Below, piece after piece: positions 1 to 9,821 of a stretch of DNA of 9,821 bases. The stretch is from the IMG/VR virus record IMGVR_UViG_2802429224_000016, one strand, 5' to 3'. The DNA is from a virus. Its lineage: Duplodnaviria > Heunggongvirae > Uroviricota > Caudoviricetes. Under the pieces are notes generated by a model. That model did no database searches. It worked only from the letters and a program-made list of their open reading frames with translations, and was not told the DNA's origin. Position 1 is the first letter of the stretch. The number at the start of each line of letters is the position of its first letter. The translations under genes and the position numbers were made by a program.

Positions 1-1047
1 GTCGCGGGATTTGATGTATTGCTGGTTTCTTTCCCGTTCATCCAGCAGTGCCAGCACGGTTTCTGGTCCGGCCAGAAATTTGAAGGCGTTGAGCGCATCA
101 ATATCCACACCGTAATCTTTAAGTTCCTGTTCACTTAACAAATCATCATCAGATGGCAACATTAACAGGCGTTCCATTGCTGGAATTGCACGTTCCGCCA
201 CCTCACGCAGTGCCTGGTAATTAATTTCGCTCACTGGTTGCCTCCTTTGCGAATCTGTTCCTCTGCGAATCTGTTCCTCCCATTCTTCAAGGGATTTCTC
301 CGCATATTCACCGGACAGGCCATCAATCGGGTACGGTTCATTAGCCAACTCTTCTTTCGCTGACAGAATCATGCGCGTAACGTCGAAAACTTCACGCAAA
401 GACTTATTGATAAATCCGTGATTGAACGCAGCAGCAAGACGGCTGGCGGTATAGTTAATCCCCTCGTTGCGTGCTTCCGCCCGAACTTCAGCCAGGAAAG
501 CGTCGGTGGCTGGGGTTTCGACATTAGGTCGAAGCTCATAATCACAAACTCTTTCAATCCATGGTGATACTCTGTCGCATTTCCTCTTCTTGCGTTCACC
601 GACCTTGGTTGCCTGCTGAATAATTACCCCCCAGCAAATGCTTTCGACCTCTTCGCTCCATCCATCGCAAGCATCGCCTCTATAGTCGTCAATTGCAGCC
701 TCAGCAGCAGCGATAGCCTCCTCAGCAGTTTTGTGACACTCGAAACTAAATTCAGAGCCATATGAGAAATACATAGCCCCGGCCTTAAGCCCCGCATTCT
801 CCGCCGCCAGCGCCGAAAACTTCTCGTGTGCCAACTTAACAGCCGAATCAGCCTGCTTAATTGACTCAATCGCTTTCTGCTGGTCTTCGGCCAGCGCATT
901 AGCACGCACCAGTTGCACTTCCAGTTGCGTTGCCAAATCGCTGATCAGCTTTGCCACACTACGCATATCAACGGCACCACATTCTGCTTTCAGTTCCGAA
1001 GCCATCTCATGCCCGGCGGAAACTAACCCTTTGATATTACTTTCCAT
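1..1047 (-). CDS. Long ORF (349 codons in window, no stop before the left edge): unknown N-terminal part fused in frame to an Ea22-like module
   Basis: Manual translation of the minus strand from ATG 1047-1045 (GAGGG RBS 7 nt upstream) is open through position 1: MESNIKGLVSAGHEMASELKAE...EWEEQIRRGTDSQRRQPVSEINYQALREVAERAIP...PETVLALLDERERNQQYIKSRD. It is absent from the supplied ORF track, presumably because no stop lies in the window. The segment after internal GTG 234-232 (perfect AGGAGG 246-241, 6-nt spacer) matches the N-terminal signature I recall for prophage Ead/Ea22-like proteins (YQALRE...A, then ...TVLALLDER...). Track ORFs 369..599(-) and 624..905(-) are other frames inside this ORF. 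Confidence 0.6.
   Translation of the reverse strand, partial: MESNIKGLVSAGHEMASELKAECGAVDMRSVAKLISDLATQLEVQLVRANALAEDQQKAIESIKQADSAVKLAHEKFSALAAENAGLKAGAMYFSYGSEFSFECHKTAEEAIAAAEAAIDDYRGDACDGWSEEVESICWGVIIQQATKVGERKKRKCDRVSPWIERVCDYELRPNVETPATDAFLAEVRAEARNEGINYTASRLAAAFNHGFINKSLREVFDVTRMILSAKEELANEPYPIDGLSGEYAEKSLEEWEEQIRRGTDSQRRQPVSEINYQALREVAERAIPAMERLLMLPSDDDLLSEQELKDYGVDIDALNAFKFLAGPETVLALLDERERNQQYIKSRD
248..279. repeat. Perfect 16-bp tandem direct duplication (TGCGAATCTGTTCCTC x2, plus strand) inside the long ORF
   Basis: Positions 248-263 and 264-279 are identical. The unit is not a multiple of 3, so it alters the frame relative to a single-copy state. Confidence 0.9.
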
Positions 1048-1108
1048 CTTTACCCTCGCTTATCCACATAACTTATTGATTACATTGATAACTAAAAAGA
1101 TCGTCGAT

Positions 1109-1453
1109 TCAGAACTCTTCGATGTTCCAGCCACCACCTGCTTTCTTTGGCTTAACCGTTACCCCGATGATTCGGAACGGATACTGATCTGCGGCGACTT
1201 TGGTTTTCACCCTGGCGTCGTCGGTCCAGAAACCTTTCACTTCGTGCAGTTCCATCTCGCCGGTGGCGAGCATCACAGCAAAATCGGGCGTATAGAACGT
1301 GTTGTCAGCTAACCGCAGCTTGATACCCTCGAATCGATACCAGGCGATTTCCCCTGCACGTTTACGCTGCTCAAGGTGCTGGCAATACGCAGATTCTGTT
1401 TTGTTCATCTGGCCTGTTTTGAGTCGACCAAGAGCCTGTATCTGTTTTCTCAT
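1109..1453 (-). CDS. DUF1064-like predicted PD-(D/E)xK nuclease (Holliday-junction-resolvase-like fold), 114 aa
   Basis: ORF with ATG 1453 preceded by AGAGGT (5-nt spacer). The protein carries a PD...ExK-type arrangement (YTPDF ... ELHEVKG) and the AGEI...L.L...YTPDF.V pattern I associate with phage DUF1064 proteins. Family call is from memory. Confidence 0.65.
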   Translation of the reverse strand: MRKQIQALGRLKTGQMNKTESAYCQHLEQRKRAGEIAWYRFEGIKLRLADNTFYTPDFAVMLATGEMELHEVKGFWTDDARVKTKVAADQYPFRIIGVTVKPKKAGGGWNIEEF

Positions 1454-1456
1454 GAT

Positions 1457-1533
1457 TTACCTCTAAGGTAATTAAAAACCACATAAGACACGAAATCAAT
1501 AGAGTTTAGAATGTTTTGTTACCTGATAGGTAA
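1457..1533. promoter_or_regulatory. Two operator-like palindromes TTACC-N5-GGTAA (1457-1471 TTACCTCTAAGGTAA; 1519-1533 TTACCTGATAGGTAA)
   Basis: Perfect 5-bp inverted half-sites with a 5-bp spacer, the same motif as in the oR/oL-like regions. Site 1457-1471 overlaps the RBS/5' UTR of the DUF1064-like gene. Confidence 0.5.
1471..1499 (-). promoter_or_regulatory. Candidate sigma70 promoter for the DUF1064-like/Ea22-like unit
   Basis: On the minus strand: -35 TTGATT (plus 1499-1494), 17-bp spacer, -10 TTTAAT (plus 1476-1471). The -10 lacks the conserved A at position 2, so this is weak. The 1457-1471 operator lies immediately downstream of the -10. Confidence 0.3.
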
Positions 1534-1545
1534 TTATTGAGACGT

Positions 1546-1566
1546 AAAAAAATGCGCTATCGCGCT
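1546..1566 (-). terminator. Weak intrinsic-terminator-like element after the P-like gene
   Basis: On the minus strand GCGC-GAUA-GCGC (plus 1554-1565) is followed by a 7-U run (plus A-run 1546-1552). The stem is only 4 bp. Confidence 0.2.
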
Positions 1567-1570
1567 GGTA

Positions 1571-2356
1571 TTACTTGATAAATCCTGCCGCCTTTCCCCG
1601 CCTGTATTCCTCCATCAGCCACTGCGCCGGTGTTATTCCCCCAAGGGTGGCGGCGTTAGGCATGCACCCGAAACTTCGCCCTGGTGGATGGTAAACGTCT
1701 CTCCCTGTGTCCGGAGGTGTACTCATGGGCTCTGGCTTTGCCTGTATGCTGATCACCGGATCGGGTATCTGCTGTCCGGAAGCCACCTTTTTCGCCCAAT
1801 CATCGAGCAGCCTGCGCGCGTGTTTCTCAACCTCAATCTCGCTAAGCTGGCGCTGATACATTGCACGGCGGGTATCACATACGACCCAGTACATAACCGG
1901 ATGTCGCCACGGGAATCTTTCGGGACCACCAGGATATAAACTTTTTTCCTTGCTGTACCGATGAAACTCCGCCATCACATCGTCAATGGTGACGCCAAGA
2001 ACCATCTTGCTGTCTTTACACCACTTGATGAATTGCCCTGGCGACGGCCAGAACGGAGATTCACTGGCGCGGGCGTGGCGCATACCAGCAGAAACCTGTT
2101 CACGGGTTCGGATCCCACTTTCAGCAAACGCAGCAATCCACTGCTGTTTTGCAGCGACTTCCTGCTCTGGCGTCTTCAGGTTGGTTACCACTGCCGCCGG
2201 AAACAGTTGTTTCAGCTGTTTGAAAAGGGCATCAACAAGCCTCTCTGCTGACATGTTCACCACATTGTCATTGTTGACGTACTGATGCTCATAACCTGAC
2301 ATGCGAGAAAGGGCTTCTCCGTCACGGTTTTGTATCGCGGTAAAAACGTTGTTCAC
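1571..2356 (-). CDS. Lambda P-like replication protein (replicative helicase loader)
   Basis: Conserved block WIAAFAESGIRTREQVSAGMRHARASESPFWPSPGQFIKWC resembles lambda P (recalled as RRQWVLAFRENGITTMEQVNAGMRVARRQNRPFLPSPGQFVAWC). Preferred start is GTG 2356-2354, with GGAGGA 6 nt upstream and a GTGA overlap with the O-like stop. The track's ATG 2371 is an in-frame alternative without an RBS. Confidence 0.85.
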   Translation of the reverse strand: MNNVFTAIQNRDGEALSRMSGYEHQYVNNDNVVNMSAERLVDALFKQLKQLFPAAVVTNLKTPEQEVAAKQQWIAAFAESGIRTREQVSAGMRHARASESPFWPSPGQFIKWCKDSKMVLGVTIDDVMAEFHRYSKEKSLYPGGPERFPWRHPVMYWVVCDTRRAMYQRQLSEIEVEKHARRLLDDWAKKVASGQQIPDPVISIQAKPEPMSTPPDTGRDVYHPPGRSFGCMPNAATLGGITPAQWLMEEYRRGKAAGFIK

Positions 2357-3168
2357 AAGAAATCCTCCCATGCTTCAGGGCTGTTCCAGTGCGGAACGTT
2401 GTTATCAGGTAATGTTGATTGCTTCTGTCTGCTAATCTGCAGCCGCCTTGCCAGCTTCTGCTCCCACTGTGCCTGATGGTATGCCTTACCCTCAGCCATC
2501 CAGTAAATTCTGAACTCTGCAAGTTCCTGTGCCGTTGGCAGACTGTCCAGGTAGATCCCCTGCAATGAGCTTTTCCGAAGAAAGTCATCTGATGGCTGCC
2601 ATTGTTCATGCATGACAAATTTGCCTAATTGCCCTGGCCCACGAGGAGGAACAAAGTTATTCATCACGGCGTTGTTTGCGCCGGGGTCATGAGGCACAGA
2701 ATCCCCGCTTTTTGTCCTGCTCTCCCTCTCTTGGTTAAATGACTGGTTATATGACTGGTTCTGGATCCCGTTTTTGGGATCATTCAACATCCCGTTTTTG
2801 GGATCATTCAACATCCCGTTTTTGGGTATATTCCCGTTTTCGGTAACATTACCGTTTTCGGGTTCATTACCCCCCTCCCGGTTGCCTTTAATGTTCCCGT
2901 TTTTGGTTATATTAAGAGAGAAAACCCGTACTCTTTTCGTCGCCCCCTTTCTCTCTCCGGTATCTGAAATAAGCCCCATTTTCATGAGCGATATAAGCCC
3001 GGCCTGCACGGTTTTTTTATTCAGGCAAGTGTCTTTAACGAGGCGTTCTATGCTGGGGTAGCAGAGGTTATATTCATCGGCTCTGTCAGCCATCGAGAGC
3101 AGTATGAGCTTTAATGACGAGCTACCTGGATCTGTCTCCCAGGCCCAATCTGTTGCATGTCTGCTCAT
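2353..3168 (-). CDS. Lambda O-like replication initiator (N-terminal HTH, iteron-encoded low-complexity linker, DnaT/O-like C-terminal domain)
   Basis: 271-aa ORF with ATG 3168 and GGAG RBS. The central peptide repeats (NDPKNGML x2, NG periodicity) are encoded by the iteron array. The C-terminal block QWQPSDDFLRKSSLQGIYLDSLPTAQELAEFRIYWMAEGKAYHQAQWEQKLARRLQ resembles the C-terminal domain of lambdoid O/DnaT-like proteins. Immediately upstream of the P-like gene. Confidence 0.8.
   Translation of the reverse strand: MSRHATDWAWETDPGSSSLKLILLSMADRADEYNLCYPSIERLVKDTCLNKKTVQAGLISLMKMGLISDTGERKGATKRVRVFSLNITKNGNIKGNREGGNEPENGNVTENGNIPKNGMLNDPKNGMLNDPKNGIQNQSYNQSFNQERESRTKSGDSVPHDPGANNAVMNNFVPPRGPGQLGKFVMHEQWQPSDDFLRKSSLQGIYLDSLPTAQELAEFRIYWMAEGKAYHQAQWEQKLARRLQISRQKQSTLPDNNVPHWNSPEAWEDFL
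2765..2910. repeat. Origin-of-replication iteron array inside the O-like gene
   Basis: Two identical 24-bp units ATCCCGTTTTTGGGATCATTCAAC (2765-2788, 2789-2812), a third variant (2813-2836) and degenerate copies with core CCCGTTTT(T)NGG (about 2833, 2852, 2896). The core ATCCC-N6-GGGAT has internal dyad symmetry, as lambda iterons do. Confidence 0.7.
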
Positions 3169-3183
3169 GATTAATCTCCGCTA

Positions 3184-3384
3184 TCAGCTTGAATGTTGTG
3201 GGGTGGAATTAATCATGATCTGCTTAATCTCTGCCCTGATGCGACGGTTTGATTCCATGGTGCACTCAACACAGTGTCCGTTGTAAACCCAGCGTTCACT
3301 GTCATGTCCGTGCTTACATGGTTTTCCGGTGTAGTAGCGTTTAAGTCCGCGCTTTGCGGCATCAATACGTGTAATGATTTCCAT
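3184..3384 (-). CDS. Small Cys/His-rich (putative zinc-binding) protein, 66 aa, at the cII-equivalent position
   Basis: ATG 3384 gives MEIITRIDAAKRGLKRYYTGKPCKHGHDSERWVYNGHCVECTMESNRR... with a C-x-H-x-H...H-C-x2-C arrangement. The track ORF extends to 3447, but that start is a TTG and the added N-terminus is a hydrophobic run. No family recognised. Confidence 0.45.
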   Translation of the reverse strand: MEIITRIDAAKRGLKRYYTGKPCKHGHDSERWVYNGHCVECTMESNRRIRAEIKQIMINSTPQHSS

Positions 3385-3464
3385 GGTAAGCCCTGTTATT
3401 AGTATTGGGATTACGGTTATTTTGTGCTGACACAAAAAAAAGATCAACCAGATTTGGTTTTTTA

Positions 3465-3479
3465 TTACCTTTGAGGTAC
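3465..3479. promoter_or_regulatory. Operator-like site TTACCTTTGAGGTAC (14 of 15 match to TTACC-N5-GGTAA)
   Basis: Lies between the post-cro terminator and the Cys/His-rich gene. Followed on the minus strand by a possible weak promoter (TTGATC-N17-CAAAAT). Confidence 0.35.
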
Positions 3480-3480
3480 G

Positions 3481-3513
3481 AATAGATATGAAAAGACCGC
3501 CACCCGGCGGTCT
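3481..3513 (-). terminator. Rho-independent terminator downstream of the Cro-like gene (tR1-like position)
   Basis: Minus-strand RNA AGACCGCC-GGGU-GGCGGUCU (plus 3494-3513; 8-bp GC-rich stem, 4-nt loop) followed by UUUUCAUAUCUAUU. On the plus strand it is preceded by A's rather than followed by T's, so it is unidirectional. Confidence 0.6.
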
Positions 3514-3534
3514 ACAGAGGGTTGTAGCTGGATA

Positions 3535-3765
3535 TCATGAGTAGAAGAAGTATGCCAGTTCTGCTTTTGAGCGCAGCCATTGTCTTGTTTTACAGGCTTT
3601 AAAAAGCCCATTCATCAATACTTTACCTGGCATTTTGCGCTTACCTGTTAAGTGAGTCTGGATATAGTGACTCGTCGTTCCGGCTTCCTGTGCGAAGGCT
3701 TCACGCTCATCCGGAGTAAGTGCAAGCCAGTGCTTTTTGAAATCGAAATGTCCGTTATCGCTCAT
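3535..3765 (-). CDS. Cro-like small HTH regulator (76 aa)
   Basis: Divergent from the repressor gene. The segment AGTTSHYIQTHLTGKRKMPGKVL resembles the lambda Cro recognition region (recalled as GVYQSAINKAIHAGRKIFL). Position and orientation match cro in a lambdoid immunity region. Confidence 0.65.
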   Translation of the reverse strand: MSDNGHFDFKKHWLALTPDEREAFAQEAGTTSHYIQTHLTGKRKMPGKVLMNGLFKACKTRQWLRSKAELAYFFYS

Positions 3766-3790
3766 AGCTATTGCCTGATATTTATTTCAG

Positions 3791-3819
3791 ATAATAAATA
3801 TTCACCCATAAGGTAACAA
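3791..3819 (-). promoter_or_regulatory. pR-like promoter driving the Cro-like gene
   Basis: On the minus strand: -35 TTGTTA (plus 3819-3814), 17-bp spacer, -10 TATTAT (plus 3796-3791). Operator site 3802-3816 sits inside the spacer/-35. Confidence 0.45.
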
Positions 3820-3864
3820 AAATCAAGGATAGTTACCTATGAGGTGCATTTACCTGTTGGGTAA
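3802..3864. promoter_or_regulatory. oR-like tripartite operator (3802-3816 TCACCCATAAGGTAA; 3833-3847 TTACCTATGAGGTGC; 3850-3864 TTACCTGTTGGGTAA)
   Basis: Three 15-bp palindromic sites in the divergent intergenic region between the Cro-like and repressor genes, centre spacings 31 and 17 bp. One perfect, two with 1-2 mismatches. Confidence 0.55.
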
Positions 3865-3919
3865 TATTGCTTTAAATTGAATCATCTACTGATTCATATA
3901 TGAGGCGATTTTCCAGAAA

Positions 3920-4504
3920 ATGAAAAGTATCCAGGACGTCCGCAGGCAAAATCTCAACGACTTGATCGACCGTGAATTCAATGGTGTTCAGACGCGGATG
4001 GCAGAAAAACTTGGAACTCAGGCAAATCTGGTAAACCGCTGGGCTCTTGGCAAGAAGGTTATCGGCGACCAGGTTGCGCGAAAAATTGAAGCTGCCGCCA
4101 ATAAACCCCGTAACTGGCTTGATATCGATCGCTCGCTTTCTCAGGAAGGTTTTCAGCCTGTCGGCCCGAGTGATATAGGTCAGCTGGCTGCTCACAACCT
4201 GGAACGCTGGATGAGCGAAAGCCGCGACCTTTCAACGCAGGGAAAACTACACCGCGCATCCGGCGTCGCCCAGGTGACAATCAGCCGCCTGTTAAACAAT
4301 GAGGTCAGCGTTTCCATTTCCACCCTGGAGAATGTTGCATCTGCATTCGGGCGTCATGGCTATGAATTACTGATTCACCCGCACGACCCTGCGACTATCA
4401 ACTATGACCGCTCGCGCTACGCATTGTTACCCGAAACCGAGAAAGCAAAGATCGAAAGTTACATTGAATTTGTCATCAACCAGAACGAAAAAAACAAACA
4501 ATAA
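3920..4504 (+). CDS. Putative prophage repressor with tandem HTH_XRE-like domains, no S24/LexA-type peptidase domain (194 aa)
   Basis: First HTH around QTRMAEKLGTQANLVNRWALGKKVIGDQVARKIEAA, second around LHRASGVAQVTISRLLNNEVSVSISTLENVASAFG. No Ser/Lys autocleavage motif seen in the C-terminus. cI-equivalent position: divergent from cro, flanked by both operator clusters. No SD upstream of ATG 3920, so a leaderless transcript is possible. Confidence 0.7.
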   Translation: MKSIQDVRRQNLNDLIDREFNGVQTRMAEKLGTQANLVNRWALGKKVIGDQVARKIEAAANKPRNWLDIDRSLSQEGFQPVGPSDIGQLAAHNLERWMSESRDLSTQGKLHRASGVAQVTISRLLNNEVSVSISTLENVASAFGRHGYELLIHPHDPATINYDRSRYALLPETEKAKIESYIEFVINQNEKNKQ

Positions 4505-4524
4505 AACTATAGTTTTCAGCAAGT

Positions 4525-4550
4525 AAGCCGCCATGAGGCGGCTTTTTTAT
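4525..4550 (+). terminator. Rho-independent terminator after the repressor gene
   Basis: AAGCCGCC-ATGA-GGCGGCTT (4525-4544) followed by TTTTTTATT. Confidence 0.7.
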
Positions 4551-4561
4551 TGCCTGTTAGA

Positions 4562-4638
4562 TTACCTGTTGGGTAATTTTTTTAACTCATATCTATTGAC
4601 ATCAAACCAGATACGCATAATTATTACCTAAACGGTAA
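4562..4638. promoter_or_regulatory. oL-like operator pair (4562-4576 TTACCTGTTGGGTAA; 4624-4638 TTACCTAAACGGTAA)
   Basis: Two perfect palindromes flanking a candidate promoter. The 16-mer TTACCTGTTGGGTAAT is identical to the site at 3850-3865. Confidence 0.55.
4596..4624 (+). promoter_or_regulatory. pL-like promoter for the rightward early operon
   Basis: Perfect -35 TTGACA (4596-4601). The -10 is either AATTAT at 17-bp spacing (4619-4624) or CATAAT at 14-bp spacing (4616-4621). The -10 region abuts or overlaps operator 4624-4638. Confidence 0.35.
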
Positions 4639-4657
4639 CAGACCGAGGTAACAAGTT

Positions 4658-4810
4658 ATGCAGTGGAAAATCATCAACGGTTGGTACTGCGTTACTGCAT
4701 GCGGATTCATGAGCTGGAAGTTCCGCACCTTACAGGAAGGCATCAAGTGGGCTTTCGTCAGCAAAGAAGCTCGCGATGTGGCCAACGATAACGAGATATG
4801 GGAGGGCTGA
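4658..4810 (+). CDS. Small hypothetical protein (50 aa, Trp-rich), first gene of the rightward operon
   Basis: ATG 4658 with GAGGT 8 nt upstream: MQWKIINGWYCVTACGFMSWKFRTLQEGIKWAFVSKEARDVANDNEIWEG, stop TGA 4808-4810. Below the length cutoff of the supplied ORF track. No family recognised. Confidence 0.4.
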   Translation: MQWKIINGWYCVTACGFMSWKFRTLQEGIKWAFVSKEARDVANDNEIWEG

Positions 4811-4812
4811 TA

Positions 4813-5112
4813 ATGAACGTTAATCAGCAGAAAAATCTTCAAAAAATCATGCTGGCATTCGACAAGGACTACCGCCTGTCAGAACAGCTATATGACCGAC
4901 AAGTTGAACTGATTGAGAGCATCCGACTTCATCAACTGTCCTCAACTTTCGACGTTGTAACAGGCAAAGGCGTTCGTCAGGAAGTACTGGAGGCTGCTAA
5001 AGACAGCCCTGAGTTCGAAGAACTGATGGATGCCTATCGGCGAGAGGCAATGGCAATTATCGCCCGCTGGGATCTGGCGGATCAGCTTGATGGACAGAGG
5101 GACGCGGCATGA
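4813..5112 (+). CDS. Hypothetical protein (99 aa), translationally coupled to the downstream exonuclease gene
   Basis: ATG 4813 with GGAGGG (4801-4806) 6 nt upstream; the track's ATG 4798 lacks an RBS. Stop overlaps the exonuclease start (ATGA at 5109-5112). No family recognised. Confidence 0.55.
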   Translation: MNVNQQKNLQKIMLAFDKDYRLSEQLYDRQVELIESIRLHQLSSTFDVVTGKGVRQEVLEAAKDSPEFEELMDAYRREAMAIIARWDLADQLDGQRDAA

Positions 5113-6008
5113 TGCGGAACGCTGGAATCATGGATAGAACAAAATACATCGGAGGAAGCGATGTTGCAGGGATTCTTGGAATTAGCCCATGGCGCACCCC
5201 GCTTGAGGTTTATCTGGATAAGGTCCAGCCACGTGTCAAACCAGTAGACCCAAGCAAGCAGAAAGTTTTCACGCGTGGCCAGCGTATGGAGCCATACGTA
5301 ATAGACCTGCTTTCTGAGGAAACAGGGATGGAAATCGTTCATCGCGGAAACCGCTATATCCACCGTGATTACGATTTTATTGCAGCTGAGATCGATGCAG
5401 AAGCAGCGTCAGGCGAGAACATTGAGATCAAAACAGTTAGTCCGTTCAAAGCCAAAGAATGGGGAGAAATCCAGACAGATGCAATTCCTGTGCATTACAC
5501 GGCCCAGGCCATGCACGGGTTGATGGTTACAAACAAACAGGTATGCGTTTTCGGTGTGCTTATCGGTGGCGACGACTTCCGAATCTATCGGGTTGAGCGT
5601 GATGAAGAAACTATCCAGGCGATCTTAGAAAAAGAAATCGCTTTCTGGGACCGAGTGAAAAATCTTAACCCGCCGGAAGCTACCAGCGTAAGCGATGTAT
5701 CGCTGATGTTTGAGAAAGATGCCGGGACAAGTATCGAGGCTGACGGAAAGGCACTCGCACTATTCAACGATCTACGAGACATGAAGTCACGCAGAAAATC
5801 ACTGGAAGAAGAAATAGCTATATCAGAAGAGAAGCTGAAGATGTACATGCAAGAGCACTCAGTCCTGACCCTGGACGGAAAGCCGCTCTGCACATGGAAA
5901 TCTCAGATCAGCAACAGATTCGACCAGAAGCTATTCCAGTCAGTACACCCTGAGTTATTCGAAAAATTCAAAACAACAACGACACAACGCGTCTTCAGAA
6001 TGAAGTAA
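5109..6008 (+). CDS. YqaJ-type viral recombinase-associated exonuclease (lambda-Exo superfamily, PD-(D/E)xK)
   Basis: N-terminal motif IGGSDVAGILGISPWRTPLEVY is typical of YqaJ-family phage exonucleases. Sits immediately upstream of recT. GAGGG RBS before ATG 5109. Confidence 0.85.
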   Translation: MMRNAGIMDRTKYIGGSDVAGILGISPWRTPLEVYLDKVQPRVKPVDPSKQKVFTRGQRMEPYVIDLLSEETGMEIVHRGNRYIHRDYDFIAAEIDAEAASGENIEIKTVSPFKAKEWGEIQTDAIPVHYTAQAMHGLMVTNKQVCVFGVLIGGDDFRIYRVERDEETIQAILEKEIAFWDRVKNLNPPEATSVSDVSLMFEKDAGTSIEADGKALALFNDLRDMKSRRKSLEEEIAISEEKLKMYMQEHSVLTLDGKPLCTWKSQISNRFDQKLFQSVHPELFEKFKTTTTQRVFRMK

Positions 6009-6017
6009 GGAGAAAAA

Positions 6018-7040
6018 ATGTCTATCAATGCACTTAAGGCAGCGGCTACCGGTAACCAAGTTGCACATCATAATGAGAAACCAACAACTCTGGCCGGACT
6101 TCTGGCAGACCCAAAAATTAAAGCTCAGATGGCTTTGGCACTTCCAAAGCACATGACAGCAGACCGTCTGGCGCGCATAGCAACCACAGAGATCCGAAAG
6201 GTTCCAAAACTTGCATCATGCGACCAAGCCAGCTTCCTGGGGGCAATTATGCAATGTGCCCAATTGGGTCTTGAACCAGGCGGAGCTCTTGGACACGCTT
6301 ACCTGATACCGTTCGACAAACGCCAGAAAGTAAATGGAAGATGGGAAACCGTATCTACAGAAGCACAGCTGATTATCGGCTATCGCGGAATGATTGACCT
6401 TGCCCGCCGCTCTGGGCAGATCCTGAGTATCTCGGCTCGTACCGTACATACAAACGACAAATTCAGCTACTCATACGGCCTGGAAGAAACGCTCGAGCAT
6501 TTACCTTGCGAAACAGGTGACCGCGGAGAATTAACGCACGTTTACGCCGTTGCACGACTGAAAGATGGCGGAGTCCAATTTGAAGTTATGAGCCGGGCAG
6601 ACGTTGAGAAAGTTCGTGCACTGAGCAAAGCCGGTAGCAGTGGCCCATGGGTTGATCACTTCGATGAGATGGCTAAAAAAACAGTAATTCGCCGACTGTT
6701 CAAATATCTTCCTGTTTCTATTGAAATGCAGAAGGCTGTTGTTATGGATGAGCGCGCTGAAGCTGGACTTAGCCAAGATAACGCAGCTGTTATCACTGGT
6801 GAATATTCCGTAGTTGACGATGAGCGTCAACACCTGTCGCCAATTTCAGATTCAGAACGAGAAGAAGCTCGAGAATATATCATCGCGATACTTAATAGCC
6901 TGGATCCATCTGCTGAAGATGCAAAAACGATGTTCAAGCGCGCTGAAAATGAAATTAACACCATGGCTGACAAGCTCGGTGATGAATATCACCAAAAATT
7001 CATGATGACGCTTAACGATATGCGTCCAGAATTCGAGTAA
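6018..7040 (+). CDS. recT: RecT-family single-strand annealing recombinase
   Basis: Strong resemblance to Rac-prophage RecT as recalled: MTADRLARIATTEIRKVP, LIIGYRGMIDLARRSGQI, THVYAVARLKDGGVQFEVM, GPWVDHFDEMAKKTVIRRLFKYLPVSIE. AAGGAG RBS before ATG 6018. Confidence 0.9.
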   Translation: MSINALKAAATGNQVAHHNEKPTTLAGLLADPKIKAQMALALPKHMTADRLARIATTEIRKVPKLASCDQASFLGAIMQCAQLGLEPGGALGHAYLIPFDKRQKVNGRWETVSTEAQLIIGYRGMIDLARRSGQILSISARTVHTNDKFSYSYGLEETLEHLPCETGDRGELTHVYAVARLKDGGVQFEVMSRADVEKVRALSKAGSSGPWVDHFDEMAKKTVIRRLFKYLPVSIEMQKAVVMDERAEAGLSQDNAAVITGEYSVVDDERQHLSPISDSEREEAREYIIAILNSLDPSAEDAKTMFKRAENEINTMADKLGDEYHQKFMMTLNDMRPEFE

Positions 7041-7089
7041 CCACCACCGCGGCGCCACACGCGCCGCACTGCAACCAAGAGAGGTATTT

Positions 7090-7338
7090 ATGAAAGGTGC
7101 ATTAGGTAAGAAGGAACTCCTGGCGGTGGTGCCACTGTCATGGAGCACTATCGACCGTATGGAGCGCGCAGGGGAATTTCCTAAACGCTGGTATATCACC
7201 GATAAACGCTGCGCATGGAACCGTGATGAAGTTGAGCGTTGGCTTGATGAACGTCAGGCAGCAAGCCCGGCAGAGTTCCAGGGTAAAAAGCCTCCGGTTC
7301 AGCAACGTGTATATCGTCCTGTGAGCAACGCTGCATGA
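7090..7338 (+). CDS. AlpA/Xis-like small winged-HTH protein (putative excisionase or regulator), 82 aa
   Basis: Motif LLAVVPLSWSTIDRMERAGEFPKRWYITDKRCAWNRDEVERWLDER fits the AlpA/Vis/TorI excisionase-type fold as I recall it. AGAGAGG RBS. Lies between recT and int. Confidence 0.7.
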   Translation: MKGALGKKELLAVVPLSWSTIDRMERAGEFPKRWYITDKRCAWNRDEVERWLDERQAASPAEFQGKKPPVQQRVYRPVSNAA

Positions 7339-7433
7339 GTGTGCTGCAAATGGTCAGGATGGTACTTATTCCTGGCCTCTGTTTCAGCATGGCTTTATCT
7401 GCTGGCATTAATTTTAAGAGAGGGTTGGATTAA

Positions 7434-7733
7434 GTGAGAAAGTTAAGCCGACTTGAAAAATATCACATGAATAAGGTTTCAATGCGCAGTCCGTCAAAGA
7501 TTGTCGCCGTTACTCCTGCGGCGATAGAGATCGAAAAACGCGCGATTGAACGAGAGAAAAAAGGGCAGTTCCGCATTGCCGCCCACCTTTGGCTTCAGTG
7601 TATGGATGTTGCTTCTGGTGATGTTGAGCGTGCAAGGATCGCGGTTCGCAGGGACCAATGTATCACAAAAGGTAACGGCCTTCGCCGTGGCGACTATAGC
7701 GGCATAGGATGTTGCGGGGTGGTTTATGACTAA
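7434..7733 (+). CDS. Hypothetical small protein (99 aa)
   Basis: Coordinates taken from the supplied ORF track; my own reading of the first two codons from the sequence text did not reproduce the track's start, so the start is uncertain (ATG 7467 is an in-frame alternative). Stop TAA 7731-7733 overlaps the methyltransferase start (ATGACTAA). Confidence 0.45.
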   Translation: MRKLSRLEKYHMNKVSMRSPSKIVAVTPAAIEIEKRAIEREKKGQFRIAAHLWLQCMDVASGDVERARIAVRRDQCITKGNGLRRGDYSGIGCCGVVYD

Positions 7734-8376
7734 GAAATACACACTAATCTATGCAGATCCACCCTGGGTATACCGGGACAAAGCCGCAGATGGTAATCGC
7801 GGTGCCGGTTTTAAATATCCAGTTATGAGTGTGCTGGATATCTGCCGCCTTCCTGTGTGGGATTTGGCCGCTGAAAACTGTCTGTTGGCCATGTGGTGGG
7901 TGCCAACACAACCACTCGAAGCACTAAAAGTTGTTGAAGCCTGGGGATTTCGTCTTATGACCATGAAGGGCTTCACGTGGATAAAATGTGGTAGTCGACA
8001 ACCAGATAAACTGGTTATGGGTATGGGACACATGACCCGCGCCAATAGTGAAGATTGCCTGTTTGCGGTAAAGGGAAAACTACCTCCGCGCATTAATGCA
8101 GGGATCGTTCAGTCATTTACCGCACCGCGGCTTGAGCACTCAAGAAAACCAGATGTCGTTCGTGAAAAACTTGTGCAATTGTTAGGCGATGTTTCTCGCA
8201 TTGAACTGTTCGCCCGCCAGTCGTCTCATGACTTCGATGTTTGGGGTAATCAGTGCGAAAACTCGGCAGTGCAACTACACCCTGGATACGCGTTGGATAT
8301 TGGCGGATTAACAAATGCATTCAGCAATTCTCCGCTGTCACCAACAGACAACCAGGGGCGGGAGCGTGCTGCATGA
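7726..8376 (+). CDS. MT-A70-family N6-adenine DNA methyltransferase (DPPW motif), 216 aa
   Basis: N-terminal YTLIYADPPWVY contains the DPPW catalytic motif of MT-A70-type amino-methyltransferases. No adjacent restriction endonuclease gene in the window. Confidence 0.8.
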   Translation: MTKKYTLIYADPPWVYRDKAADGNRGAGFKYPVMSVLDICRLPVWDLAAENCLLAMWWVPTQPLEALKVVEAWGFRLMTMKGFTWIKCGSRQPDKLVMGMGHMTRANSEDCLFAVKGKLPPRINAGIVQSFTAPRLEHSRKPDVVREKLVQLLGDVSRIELFARQSSHDFDVWGNQCENSAVQLHPGYALDIGGLTNAFSNSPLSPTDNQGRERAA

Positions 8377-8567
8377 ACAGGGCATCACCAGCAGATTTAA
8401 GAAAATGCCTTGAAACTGCAAACATGCTTGCACACAGCGGGATCAGGTTTGTTCCAATTCCCGCTGTCACTGATGCTGAATTTGCAACACTGTCAGCAAT
8501 ATTCGAAAACAAAATTGAATCACTGGCAGCAGAAGCAGAGATGGAAGAAAATCAGCAGAACTATTAA
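8373..8567 (+). CDS. Hypothetical protein (64 aa), translationally coupled to the methyltransferase
   Basis: ATG 8373 overlaps the methyltransferase stop (ATGA); GGGAG 8 nt upstream. The longer track ORF from 8253 overlaps the methyltransferase in another frame and is rejected. Product MNRASPADLRKCLETANMLAHSGIRFVPIPAVTDAEFATLSAIFENKIESLAAEAEMEENQQNY. Confidence 0.45.
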   Translation: MNRASPADLRKCLETANMLAHSGIRFVPIPAVTDAEFATLSAIFENKIESLAAEAEMEENQQNY

Positions 8568-8570
8568 ACG

Positions 8571-9821
8571 TTATTCCCCCGCCATCCACTTCTCAAACTT
8601 CGACGGGGAGAACGGAATCAGATCCGTATGCTCCCCGTTAATCCAGGAATCAATCATATCGGCCCACTGCTGCAACATGTAGGCGCGCTGTCTGGCGTAT
8701 TCCGCTTTGTTATATACGGCGCGCACACCTTTCTGCTCATGTGCCAGAGCCTTTTCAATCCAGTCTGAAGGATAACCAGCCTCATGCAACAACGTACTGG
8801 CTGTACGGCGCATATCGTGTACGGTGAAGCCCTGAATATGCTCACCATCTTCATTTATTATTTTCACCGTTCTGTCGATCAGAGAGTTCAGCGCGGCATT
8901 AGATAATGGCTTCCGGAAATTGTAACGACCAGGAACCAGATATTCACTTCCACCAGCGCACATCTGCAACCCAACCAATATATCCTGTGCCTGTTTAGGC
9001 AGGTAAATAACGTGCGCCCGGCTTCCCTTCATGCGGTCTGAAGGAATTGTCCATGTCCATTTTTTAAAATCTATTTCATCCCACGTTGCATTGGTGAATT
9101 CGCCTTTACGAACCATAGTGATAAGCACCAGCTTTAAAGCAATTTTCATAGTGCCCATAGCACCAATGGCATCCAGCGTGCGGAAGAACAGGCCAATTTC
9201 TTCTGGTGTCAGTGTTCGCTCTCGTGGTTTAAATATGGCGATAGACGAAGGTTTAATGTCAGCCGCAGGATTAAACAAACCATGACCACGGTCATTGGCG
9301 TGACGGTATACGCTGCTGATGATCTCCCTGGCCTGTACTGCTGTTGCCCGACCACCACGTTCGACAATGCGGTCACACAAATCACGAACCATCGATGTGG
9401 TAATTTCAGCCATCATTTTGTTGCCAAGAACCGGAAGTATGTCACGGTCGATCACCGCCTGCTTCATTGCGCGGGTACTGTCAGCCAGGATGACGTGTTT
9501 CATATAACTGTCGGTATGTACCGCAAACGTCTCGGCACCACGAATCTTTTTGATACCGTCACGTTTAGCCGCAGCCGGTGACTGGCCTGCTTTAAGCAGC
9601 TTCTTTGCAGCAATCAGTTCTTCTCGCGCTTCTGCCAGGCTGATACCGTCACGCCCATACTGCCCGATTACCAGTGTTTCGCGGCGACCGTTGATACGGT
9701 AGTCATAGCGAAACGAGACCGTGCCTGACGTAAGAACAGCTACATACAGCCCGTCACGATCGGAGACCTTGTACAGTTTGTCCTGCGGCTTGAGGTTTTT
9801 TAATTTTGTATCGGTAAGCAC
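8571..9821 (-). CDS. int: Tyrosine recombinase / phage integrase (P4-type N-terminus), 5' end truncated by the window edge
   Basis: 416 codons open to the window end. N-terminal LTDTKLKNLKPQDKLYKVSDRDGLYV is a P4-like integrase signature; the C-terminus carries HxxR (HDMRRT) and the catalytic-Tyr region (VRAVYNKAEY). The first in-window codon is GTG, so the true start probably lies just beyond 9821. Confidence 0.9.
   Translation of the reverse strand: MLTDTKLKNLKPQDKLYKVSDRDGLYVAVLTSGTVSFRYDYRINGRRETLVIGQYGRDGISLAEAREELIAAKKLLKAGQSPAAAKRDGIKKIRGAETFAVHTDSYMKHVILADSTRAMKQAVIDRDILPVLGNKMMAEITTSMVRDLCDRIVERGGRATAVQAREIISSVYRHANDRGHGLFNPAADIKPSSIAIFKPRERTLTPEEIGLFFRTLDAIGAMGTMKIALKLVLITMVRKGEFTNATWDEIDFKKWTWTIPSDRMKGSRAHVIYLPKQAQDILVGLQMCAGGSEYLVPGRYNFRKPLSNAALNSLIDRTVKIINEDGEHIQGFTVHDMRRTASTLLHEAGYPSDWIEKALAHEQKGVRAVYNKAEYARQRAYMLQQWADMIDSWINGEHTDLIPFSPSKFEKWMAGE

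Follow-up and report, generated by a model that had tools for sequence, protein, structure and literature searches.

Probable operators and domain roles of a tandem helix-turn-helix phage repressor related to Rep of Salmonella phage SPC32H

How can a temperate phage be induced if its repressor lacks a domain for self-cleavage, and how does a chain with two helix-turn-helix (HTH) modules face a two-fold symmetric operator? Both questions arise from a 194-aa protein, here called Rep, which is encoded on a stretch of viral DNA of 9,821 nucleotides (the window, to which all positions refer). The original prediction, made from the letters of the DNA, had described a tandem-HTH repressor without an S24 domain, a candidate operator TTACC-N5-GGTAA and induction by an antirepressor or another signal. 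Our analysis points to the following answer: the window is very probably the immunity and early region of a phiV10/epsilon15-like temperate podovirus (Uetakevirus), with an SPC32H-type Rep that acts on TTACC-N5-GGTAA operators and is inactivated by a LexA-controlled antirepressor, Ant.

A nucleotide search with bases 3400-4700 revealed 96-98% identity to phiV10 and a set of Escherichia podoviruses and about 77% identity to Enterobacter phage Tyrion; the whole window is 97% identical to phiV10 and its relatives. All phages matched in this search belong to the genus Uetakevirus (epsilon15-like), and the gene order of the window is that of the early region of phiV10 (Table 1). Of 5426 complete E. 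coli genomes, 65 contain at least 80% of the window, the best match being 98%; in one of these 65 genomes the prophage is flanked by guaA and yfgI. Among the complete E. coli genomes and the phage collection no record was identical to the window, the best one reaching about 98%. Homologues of Rep are spread across the Enterobacteriaceae. The protein in the cro position had no match in Pfam, NCBIfam or PDB; it is likely a second reader of the oR sites, a role assigned from gene position only.

Table 1. Genes, protein domains, operators, promoters and terminators of the window
Feature	Position	Strand	Remarks
DUF1064 nuclease-like gene	1109-1453	-	
Downstream operator of post-replication pair, perfect	1457-1471		ends 3 nt before the DUF1064 ATG (1453)
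Post-replication promoter-like element	TTGATT 1499-1494; weak -10-like TTTAAT 1476-1471	-	
Upstream operator of post-replication pair, perfect	1519-1533		directly after terminator annotated in phiV10
Terminator downstream of P-like gene	before 1533-1519 operator	-	as annotated in phiV10
Lambda-P-like replication gene	1571-2371	-	
DnaT-like replication gene	2353-3168	-	
Small ORF	between cro-position gene and DnaT-like gene		gene-order list
Single operator TTACCTTTGAGGTAC, one mismatch, after terminator of cro-like gene	3465-3479		17 nt before -35-like TTGATC
Terminator of cro-like gene	3513-3494	-	
Cro-position gene, 76 aa	3535-3765	-	PHROG 35 'transcriptional repressor'; divergent from rep
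pR-like promoter, predicted to drive cro-like gene	-35 3819-3814; -10 3796-3791	leftward	promoter scan
oR-region operator TCACCCATAAGGTAA, one mismatch	3802-3816		in spacer of leftward pR-like promoter
oR-region operator TTACCTATGAGGTGC, two mismatches	3833-3847		17 bp centre-to-centre from 3850 site
oR-region operator nearest rep TTACCTGTTGGGTAA, perfect	3850-3864		same position in phiV10, Tyrion, epsilon15, SPC32H, BUCT711
rep, 194-aa immunity repressor	3920-4504	+	ORF, identity to phiV10 p40, SPC32H Rep homology
Rep N-terminal DNA-binding HTH (approximate)	aa 1-70, nt 3920-4129	+	role by homology
Rep HTH_3-like dimerisation module, after linker (approximate)	aa 84-151, nt 4169-4372	+	role by homology
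Rep C-terminal tetramerisation/Ant-binding tail (approximate)	aa 152-194, nt 4373-4501	+	role by homology
rep terminator	4525-4544		directly before oL-type upstream operator
oL-type upstream operator, perfect	4562-4576		19 nt before -35 of pL-like promoter
pL-like promoter, TTGACA-17-AATTAT	4596-4624 (-10 at 4619-4624)	+	10/12 match; consensus match only
oL-type downstream operator, perfect	4624-4638		overlaps -10 end and expected start site
Two small ORFs 3' of rep	4658-4810; 4798-5112		PHROGs of unknown function only
YqaJ-type exonuclease	5109-6008		
RecT	6018-7040		
DUF1382 protein, MT-A70 methylase, PerC-like and AlpA-like genes	between integrase and RecT		gene-order list
Integrase	8571-9821	-	gene-order match to phiV10

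The window was scanned with the motif TTACCNNNNNGGTAA (TTACC-N5-GGTAA), and the result agreed exactly with the predicted eight palindromes at four loci: five copies are perfect, two carry one mismatch and one carries two. First-order Markov simulations gave an expectation of 0.003 perfect sites, compared with the 5 observed, and of 0.13 sites with at most one mismatch, compared with 7. All eight sites are located within the intergenic 7.5% of bases 1101-9821, for which random placement gives a p of about 1e-9. The coding sequences contain no match with one mismatch or fewer, and the claim of an exclusively intergenic location also held. The densest operator clusters flank rep: three sites lie between it and the cro-like gene, and two follow it. 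Two further matches with two mismatches, at 624 and at 3641 (the latter inside the cro-like ORF), were rejected as chance occurrences, as about three are expected at this stringency.

The sites are arranged in a regular way relative to the predicted transcription signals. Three units of the window share the order terminator, operator, promoter-like element. The pL-like promoter lies in front of the recombination, excision and methylase operon. In the post-replication unit the downstream operator abuts the weak -10-like TTTAAT, and the unit after the cro-like gene has a lone half-site only at the place where a second operator would be expected. Both full pairs (1457/1519 and 4562/4624) are 62 bp apart centre to centre. 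This spacing was found in 13 of 14 such pairs across seven genomes, the exception being 63 bp, and since 62 bp corresponds to about six helical turns, both sites of a pair should be exposed on one face of the helix. The layout of the oR region (17 and 30/31 bp) is conserved in epsilon15 and SPC32H, and the 17-bp pair at the place of the 3833 and 3850 sites is perfect in epsilon15, SPC32H and BUCT711. For rep itself no acceptable -35/-10 pair was recognised by eye in 3865-3919, and the promoter scan lists none there.

Counting sites with at most one mismatch in related genomes yielded 14 for phiV10 (0.78 expected), 18 for SPC32H (0.65 expected), 15 each for epsilon15 and Tyrion, and 13 each for Klebsiella phage BUCT711 and the E. 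coli guaA prophage. The loci correspond across these genomes. They comprise a cluster in the intergenic region shared by rep and the cro-like gene, two or three sites behind rep, a pair behind the replication genes and, in most cases, a further site behind the cro-like gene. Beyond the range of the window, single or paired sites are located at the terminase gene and before the head module, ant, the lysis cassette and int. The half-sites are constant and the five spacer bases differ even between phages with 97% identity; for example, site 4562 reads TTACCTGTTGGGTAA in the window and its phiV10 counterpart reads TTACCTAACGGGTAA in the same orientation. Symmetrising 44 perfect sites resulted in the motif A-TTACC-w-w-W-w-w-GGTAA-T, with A or T at the centre in 98% of cases. 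Weakened variants are conserved as well, namely TCACC at pR and in front of the lysis unit, GTACC downstream of cro and GGTAT upstream of int. The TCACC variant is kept at the position of the 3802 site in phiV10, Tyrion, epsilon15 and SPC32H, and the GTACC variant of the 3465 site occupies the same locus in phiV10 and Tyrion.

The GenBank record of epsilon15 (AY150271.2) marks seven ATTACC-N5-GGTAAT sites as 'protein_bind: repressor, lysogeny', which are annotations and not footprints; they include three oL sites as well as one site behind the replication genes and one in front of the ant homologue. By this record the assignment of the palindromes to the repressor is already public, as annotation only. 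Together with the recurrence of the same loci in five diverged lineages it strengthens the proposal that the palindrome is an operator, and with high probability the palindromes of the window would be operators of Rep.

A different regulator could nevertheless be the main user of these sites, and the 76-aa cro-position protein, the PerC-like activator and the AlpA-like protein come into question. Such a regulator would fit the genome-wide distribution of the motif, which stands at the start of most operons (those for terminase, head, lysis, int and ant among them), and also the location of many sites upstream of the -35 element at about -60, the classical activator position. The half-site is, moreover, identical in phages whose Reps share only 42% identity. 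This last point is accounted for by the recognition helix of Rep: the sequence NLVNRW (aa 36-41, predicted third helix) in the N-terminal domain is invariant in the Reps of five lineages, and for this reason a common half-site is expected. Further arguments for Rep are the position of the densest clusters on both sides of rep, as in lambdoid oR/oL, the one site inside the pR spacer and the others overlapping -10 and +1, and the assignment of the sites to the repressor by the epsilon15 curators. That a Cro-like protein would share the oR sites is to be expected in any case and is compatible with binding of Rep. We therefore regard it as unlikely that the palindromes belong mainly to another regulator.

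With Rep as the probable reader of the palindromes, the two HTH modules of the protein have to be considered. Rep is 100% identical to phiV10 p40, ZX5 ORF21 and a dozen other phage records, and the GenBank note on phiV10 p40 reads 'putative transcriptional repressor; two helix-turn-helix motifs'. When the identical Rep was overexpressed in ZX5, free phage disappeared and endolysin mRNA fell by 99.99% (PMC9782041). Using phmmer, aa 1-190 of Rep matched PDB entry 5d50_A, 'Repressor', with E=4e-42, and aa 89-190 matched 5d4z_A (SPC32H Rep 92-198) with E=4e-20; 5D50 and 5D4Z are the structures of the Rep-Ant complex and of Rep from Salmonella phage SPC32H. BLASTP gave 42% identity between both Reps over 196 columns. 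In Pfam, HTH_3 was found at aa 106-147 (E=1.2e-9), and aa 21-61 gave only a sub-threshold match to a Cro-like HTH (YdaS_toxin, 3e-4); PHROG repressor families match aa 1-76 separately. The AlphaFold model, for which 23 family members were used (pLDDT 78.6), has an all-alpha fold; its helical segments span about aa 1-70, 83-151 and 164-193 and are joined by low-confidence linkers. A Foldseek search with this model returned 5D50, 'Rep-Ant complex', and 5D4Z first, followed by assorted small HTH regulators. The original description of two HTH-like modules and no S24 domain was confirmed. The NCBI pipeline names Rep 'helix-turn-helix domain-containing protein' and Ant 'hypothetical protein', so that the assignment has value for annotation; NCBIfam contains no model for Rep or for Ant. 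As a side observation, aa 106-192 of Rep showed similarity to the RstR repressor family of CTX phage in NCBIfam, far below the cutoff (E=7.7e-4).

According to papers describing its structure, SPC32H Rep binds DNA with its N-terminal domain, dimerises through its middle domain and uses its C-terminal domain for tetramerisation and Ant binding, and fragment 92-198 is the tetramer core. These papers also state that palindromic DNA is bound by a tetramer in which each DNA-binding pair is drawn from different dimers, and that the dimer alone binds DNA weakly. By analogy with this homologue, the domain roles, the tetramer and the mechanism of Ant can be assigned provisionally to the Rep of the window; because the identity is only 42%, tetramerisation and Ant binding of this Rep are predictions from the homologue.

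The original prediction had assumed that two HTHs of one chain face the symmetric site. Contact of both modules with DNA would mean either that one monomer covers the two half-sites or that the second module recognises a different motif. The second module is indeed the stronger match to HTH_3, and its putative third helix contains two residues, T120 and R123, that do not vary among five Reps. In the solved homologue, however, this middle module is the dimerisation domain and belongs to the tetramer core fragment, and the N-terminal domain binds DNA. The properties of the two parts of Rep differ accordingly in the sequence: the N-terminal 70 residues have a pI of 10.0 and are the most conserved part, with 54-56% identity to Klebsiella and Salmonella Reps, and the middle module has a near-neutral pI of 6.2 and shows the lowest conservation among the folded parts, with 31-41% identity to distant Reps, although the half-site is invariant across lineages. 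An inverted repeat of TTACC and GGTAA also suits two identical readers and not two different domains. Contact of both modules with DNA is consequently improbable, and the puzzle of an unusual geometry disappears, since one HTH would read the DNA and the other would have become a dimer interface.

The third domain bears on the question of induction. Peptidase_S24 gave no Pfam match in Rep at E<=0.1, only about 43 residues follow the second HTH-like module, and neither Ala-Gly nor Cys-Gly occurs anywhere in the protein; the expectation that self-cleavage is unlikely was therefore correct. Rep combines similarity to SPC32H Rep over the full length and in fold with a three-part architecture lacking a protease and with flanking palindromic operators, and the features of the LexA/lambda CI type, a C-terminal S24 domain with a Ser-Lys dyad and a linker site with Ala-Gly or Cys-Gly, are missing. 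RecA-stimulated self-cleavage by a cryptic protease fold, for which we found no other support than the response of phiV10-species prophages to DNA damage, is extremely improbable, as the model is all-alpha, no S24 fold appears among the Foldseek matches listed and a LexA-controlled Ant accounts for SOS inducibility.

Even with two mismatches allowed, no LexA box was detected in the window, and the SOS input must therefore lie outside of it. Nor was an antirepressor recognisable within the window, where the two small ORFs 3' of rep match only PHROGs of unknown function. Extending the search beyond the window, as the original prediction had proposed, led to an 85-aa Ant in genomes carrying an identical Rep. 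In phiV10 this protein is p24 (85 aa), encoded upstream of the tail-fibre gene; it is 88% identical to SPC32H Ant and matches PDB 5d50_E, 'Anti-repressor protein', with E=2.9e-46. Upstream of phiV10 p24, just before the ribosome-binding site, lies the LexA box TACTGTGTATTTATACAGT, and about 50 bp further upstream there is one Rep-type palindrome. The same arrangement of LexA box and palindrome before ant was found in SPC32H, the E. coli guaA prophage and Tyrion, and a LexA-like sequence precedes ant in BUCT711. Ant was present in 35 of 36 phage records with a full-length Rep. The ant gene of the phage in the window is predicted to be located about 24 kb outside the window, adjoining the tailspike gene.

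Induction by an antirepressor, suggested originally as one possibility, gains support from these data, since Rep is homologous to the SPC32H Rep that was solved together with Ant and since genomes with an identical Rep encode Ant behind a LexA box. According to a review and later papers, an antirepressor under LexA control acts on a non-cleavable repressor in the SPC32H system. A DNA-damaging microcin induced prophages of the phiV10 species 21- and 47-fold (bioRxiv 10.64898/2026.05.26.727859).

Taken together, we propose the following mechanism. The basic N-terminal HTH with the helix NLVNRW would read the TTACC half-sites; the second, HTH_3-like module would dimerise Rep without binding DNA, and the C-terminal tail would build the tetramer. 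Such a tetramer would offer two pairs of N-terminal domains and could hold two palindromes of 15-17 bp at once. Rep would shut off four leftward or rightward promoters of the window, the pR-like, the pL-like, the post-replication and the post-cro-like promoter. The pR-like promoter would be controlled by the operator inside its spacer and by the 17-bp pair next to rep, and the pL-like and post-replication promoters would each have an operator on either side, at about -62 and +1, with a spacing of 62 bp. Each unit would be insulated by the terminator just before its operator. After DNA damage, cleavage of LexA would derepress ant (85 aa), and Ant would bind to the C-terminal part of Rep, break the tetramer and remove Rep from the DNA.

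Within this mechanism we infer from the sequence both which promoter is controlled by each site and that the 62-bp pairs are bridged by one tetramer; with its two DNA-binding pairs, such a tetramer would be able to occupy a 17-bp pair or a 62-bp pair. As about -62 is also a typical position for an activator, the upstream operators need not act only in repression. A more tentative extension, which we consider possible but doubtful, is that Rep may gate nearly every transcription unit of the phage via about ten operator loci. Each 62-bp pair might then form a micro-loop of six turns that is closed by one tetramer and clamps the promoter; the weakened variants could order derepression, and the site near -60 of the ant promoter could tie ant to the occupancy by Rep.

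For Uetakevirus a tandem-HTH repressor without a protease, its antirepressor and its palindromic operator are all on record already, and the discovery value is little. Four features were not found stated in the phage records and literature consulted, the primary papers on SPC32H and epsilon15 aside, and are modest leads: the strict 62-bp geometry bracketing the promoters, the modular order of terminator, operator and promoter, the conserved weakened variants and the Rep-type palindrome upstream of ant. The 62-bp pairs and the genome-wide sites provide a testable picture of a tetrameric repressor that would control a whole phage without an antitermination cascade.

The closest known system is the Rep/Ant switch of SPC32H, reportedly described by Kim et al., PNAS 2016, and by Kim and Ryu, J Virol 2013. 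Both phages share a Rep that is homologous over its full length with the same three-part architecture, a rep gene divergent from a cro-like gene and TTACC-N5-GGTAA sites at oR, at oL and after the replication genes, and in sister genomes of the window the same small Ant is encoded beside the tailspike gene and preceded by a LexA box. In contrast, the middle domain of SPC32H Rep is only 31% identical to that of the Rep studied here, oL comprises three sites there and two in the window, and the first spacer base is mostly A there and mostly T here. Phages phiV10 (p40) and ZX5 (ORF21), both Escherichia Uetakevirus, encode the identical protein; about 3% of the bases of the window are different in phiV10, where an exonuclease-RecT fusion is annotated in place of the separate genes of the window. 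The gp38 repressor of epsilon15 has the same palindromes, annotated as repressor-binding in its record, but the oR sites and the second member of the post-replication pair are unmarked.

The repressors of Gifsy-1, Gifsy-3 and Fels-2 and the CI protein of phage 186 are likewise non-cleavable, and the SOS signal is transmitted via LexA to a small antirepressor (Tum in 186); for this logic we refer to Lemire et al. 2011 (PMC3121763). The likeness to these systems is one of logic; an Ant of the SPC32H-type family binds off the DNA-binding surface and dismantles the tetramer. Repressors of the lambda CI/LexA type resemble Rep in the divergent rep/cro layout, the clustered oR/oL operators and the N-terminal HTH DNA-binding domain. 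They differ in that Rep has neither an S24 protease nor a site for RecA-stimulated cleavage, and in that the early operons of the window appear to form separate repressor-gated units behind terminators.

The paired Rep-type palindromes (TTACC-N5-GGTAA) were compared in seven genomes, the window and L002 to L007, which include Salmonella phage SPC32H (L002), phiV10 (L003) and the E. coli guaA prophage (L005). The centre-to-centre spacing of these candidate operators was exactly 62 bp in 13 of 14 pairs, and the sole exception showed a spacing of 63 bp. A promoter-like element is flanked by the two sites of each pair, one of them near -62 and the other over +1. This fixed spacing, together with the bracketing of the promoter, suggests that a single Rep tetramer bridges both sites of a pair across six helical turns. 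The imperfect half-sites are specific for their locus and are kept across lineages (the window, phiV10 and the matching sites in SPC32H and in L004, L006 and L007, three further genomes). Because of this conservation locus by locus, it looks as if graded operator strength is under selection.

Every early unit shows the same order of elements: first a terminator, then, 0 to 17 bp further on, a Rep-type palindrome, and last the promoter-like element. Accordingly, the early region consists of insulated units, which are gated individually. At the DUF1064 gene (ATG at position 1453) the right half of the operator 1457-1471 (AGAGGTAA) is at the same time the Shine-Dalgarno sequence, so that the overlapping sequence would serve the binding of both Rep and the ribosome.

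Further Rep-type palindromes are located at the terminase gene, upstream of the head module, the lysis cassette and int, and on both sides of ant. Judged from these sites, the predicted Rep-type regulon is not confined to the four loci of the window and spans the whole genome. The small-terminase CDS, as annotated, contains the terminase-proximal palindromes in phiV10 and in the E. coli guaA prophage, whereas those of epsilon15 and Tyrion lie upstream of it; for this reason the start codon of the phiV10 small terminase may have been called too early.

Positions of operators, terminators and selected genes
Feature	Genome	Position	Remark
Operator pair	window	1457-1533	palindrome positions
Operator pair	window	4562-4638	palindrome positions
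Terminators of early units	window	1534-1553; 3494-3513; 4525-4544	
TCACC variant	window	3802	pR site; also at lysis site
GTACC variant	window	3465	3' of cro-like gene
GGTAT variant			5' of int
Imperfect sites	phiV10	24692; 26870	
Palindromes beyond window range	phiV10	87; 3252; 20497; 20877; 24692; 26870	
Palindromes at such loci	SPC32H	12; 3175; 20013; 24782; 26960	
BRO-N protein gene	E. coli guaA prophage	35133-35819	(-)
BRO-N protein gene	ZX5 (L008)	1078-1773	(-)
Exonuclease gene	window	5109-6008	separate from RecT
RecT gene	window	6018-7040	separate from exonuclease

No NCBIfam model at cutoff was found for Rep (window 3920-4504) or for the antirepressor Ant (phiV10 20543-20800). Structures of homologues of both proteins have been solved, yet in RefSeq Rep is labelled 'helix-turn-helix domain-containing protein' and Ant 'hypothetical protein'. 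Below the cutoff, a weak match of Rep residues 106-192 to the RstR family (NCBIfam, E=7.7e-4) may indicate that Rep and the CTX-phage repressor are distantly related.

In several phiV10-like phages a gene for a BRO-N protein lies beside ant, and the C-terminal 75 residues of this protein share 42% identity with Ant. It is this BRO-N/Ant-like protein that the ZX5 paper (PMC9782041) tested, under the name 'ORF4 anti-repressor', by overexpressing it. phiV10 itself has only one Ant-like place. The E. coli guaA prophage additionally contains, between the tail genes and ant (32419-34149), a YafO toxin and a P22 immI-like insert, which codes for a large 'phage antirepressor N-terminal domain' protein as well as for one of the Arc family; with this insert it possesses up to three antirepressor-type genes.

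Within the DnaT-like replication gene, three adjoining tandem-repeat arrays with periods of 12, 24 and 18 bp (window 2732-2871) encode a repeated GMLNDPKNG segment of the protein. The 24-bp unit is present in 2.6 copies with 100% identity, and the arrays are probably the origin iterons. At the left end (window 243-279) the 16-bp unit TCCTCTGCGAATCTGT occurs in 2.3 copies with 95% identity.

Concerning the recombination genes, epsilon15 likewise encodes exonuclease and RecT by two genes, whereas phiV10 has one annotated 'recET fusion' in place of the two genes of the window (5109-7040).
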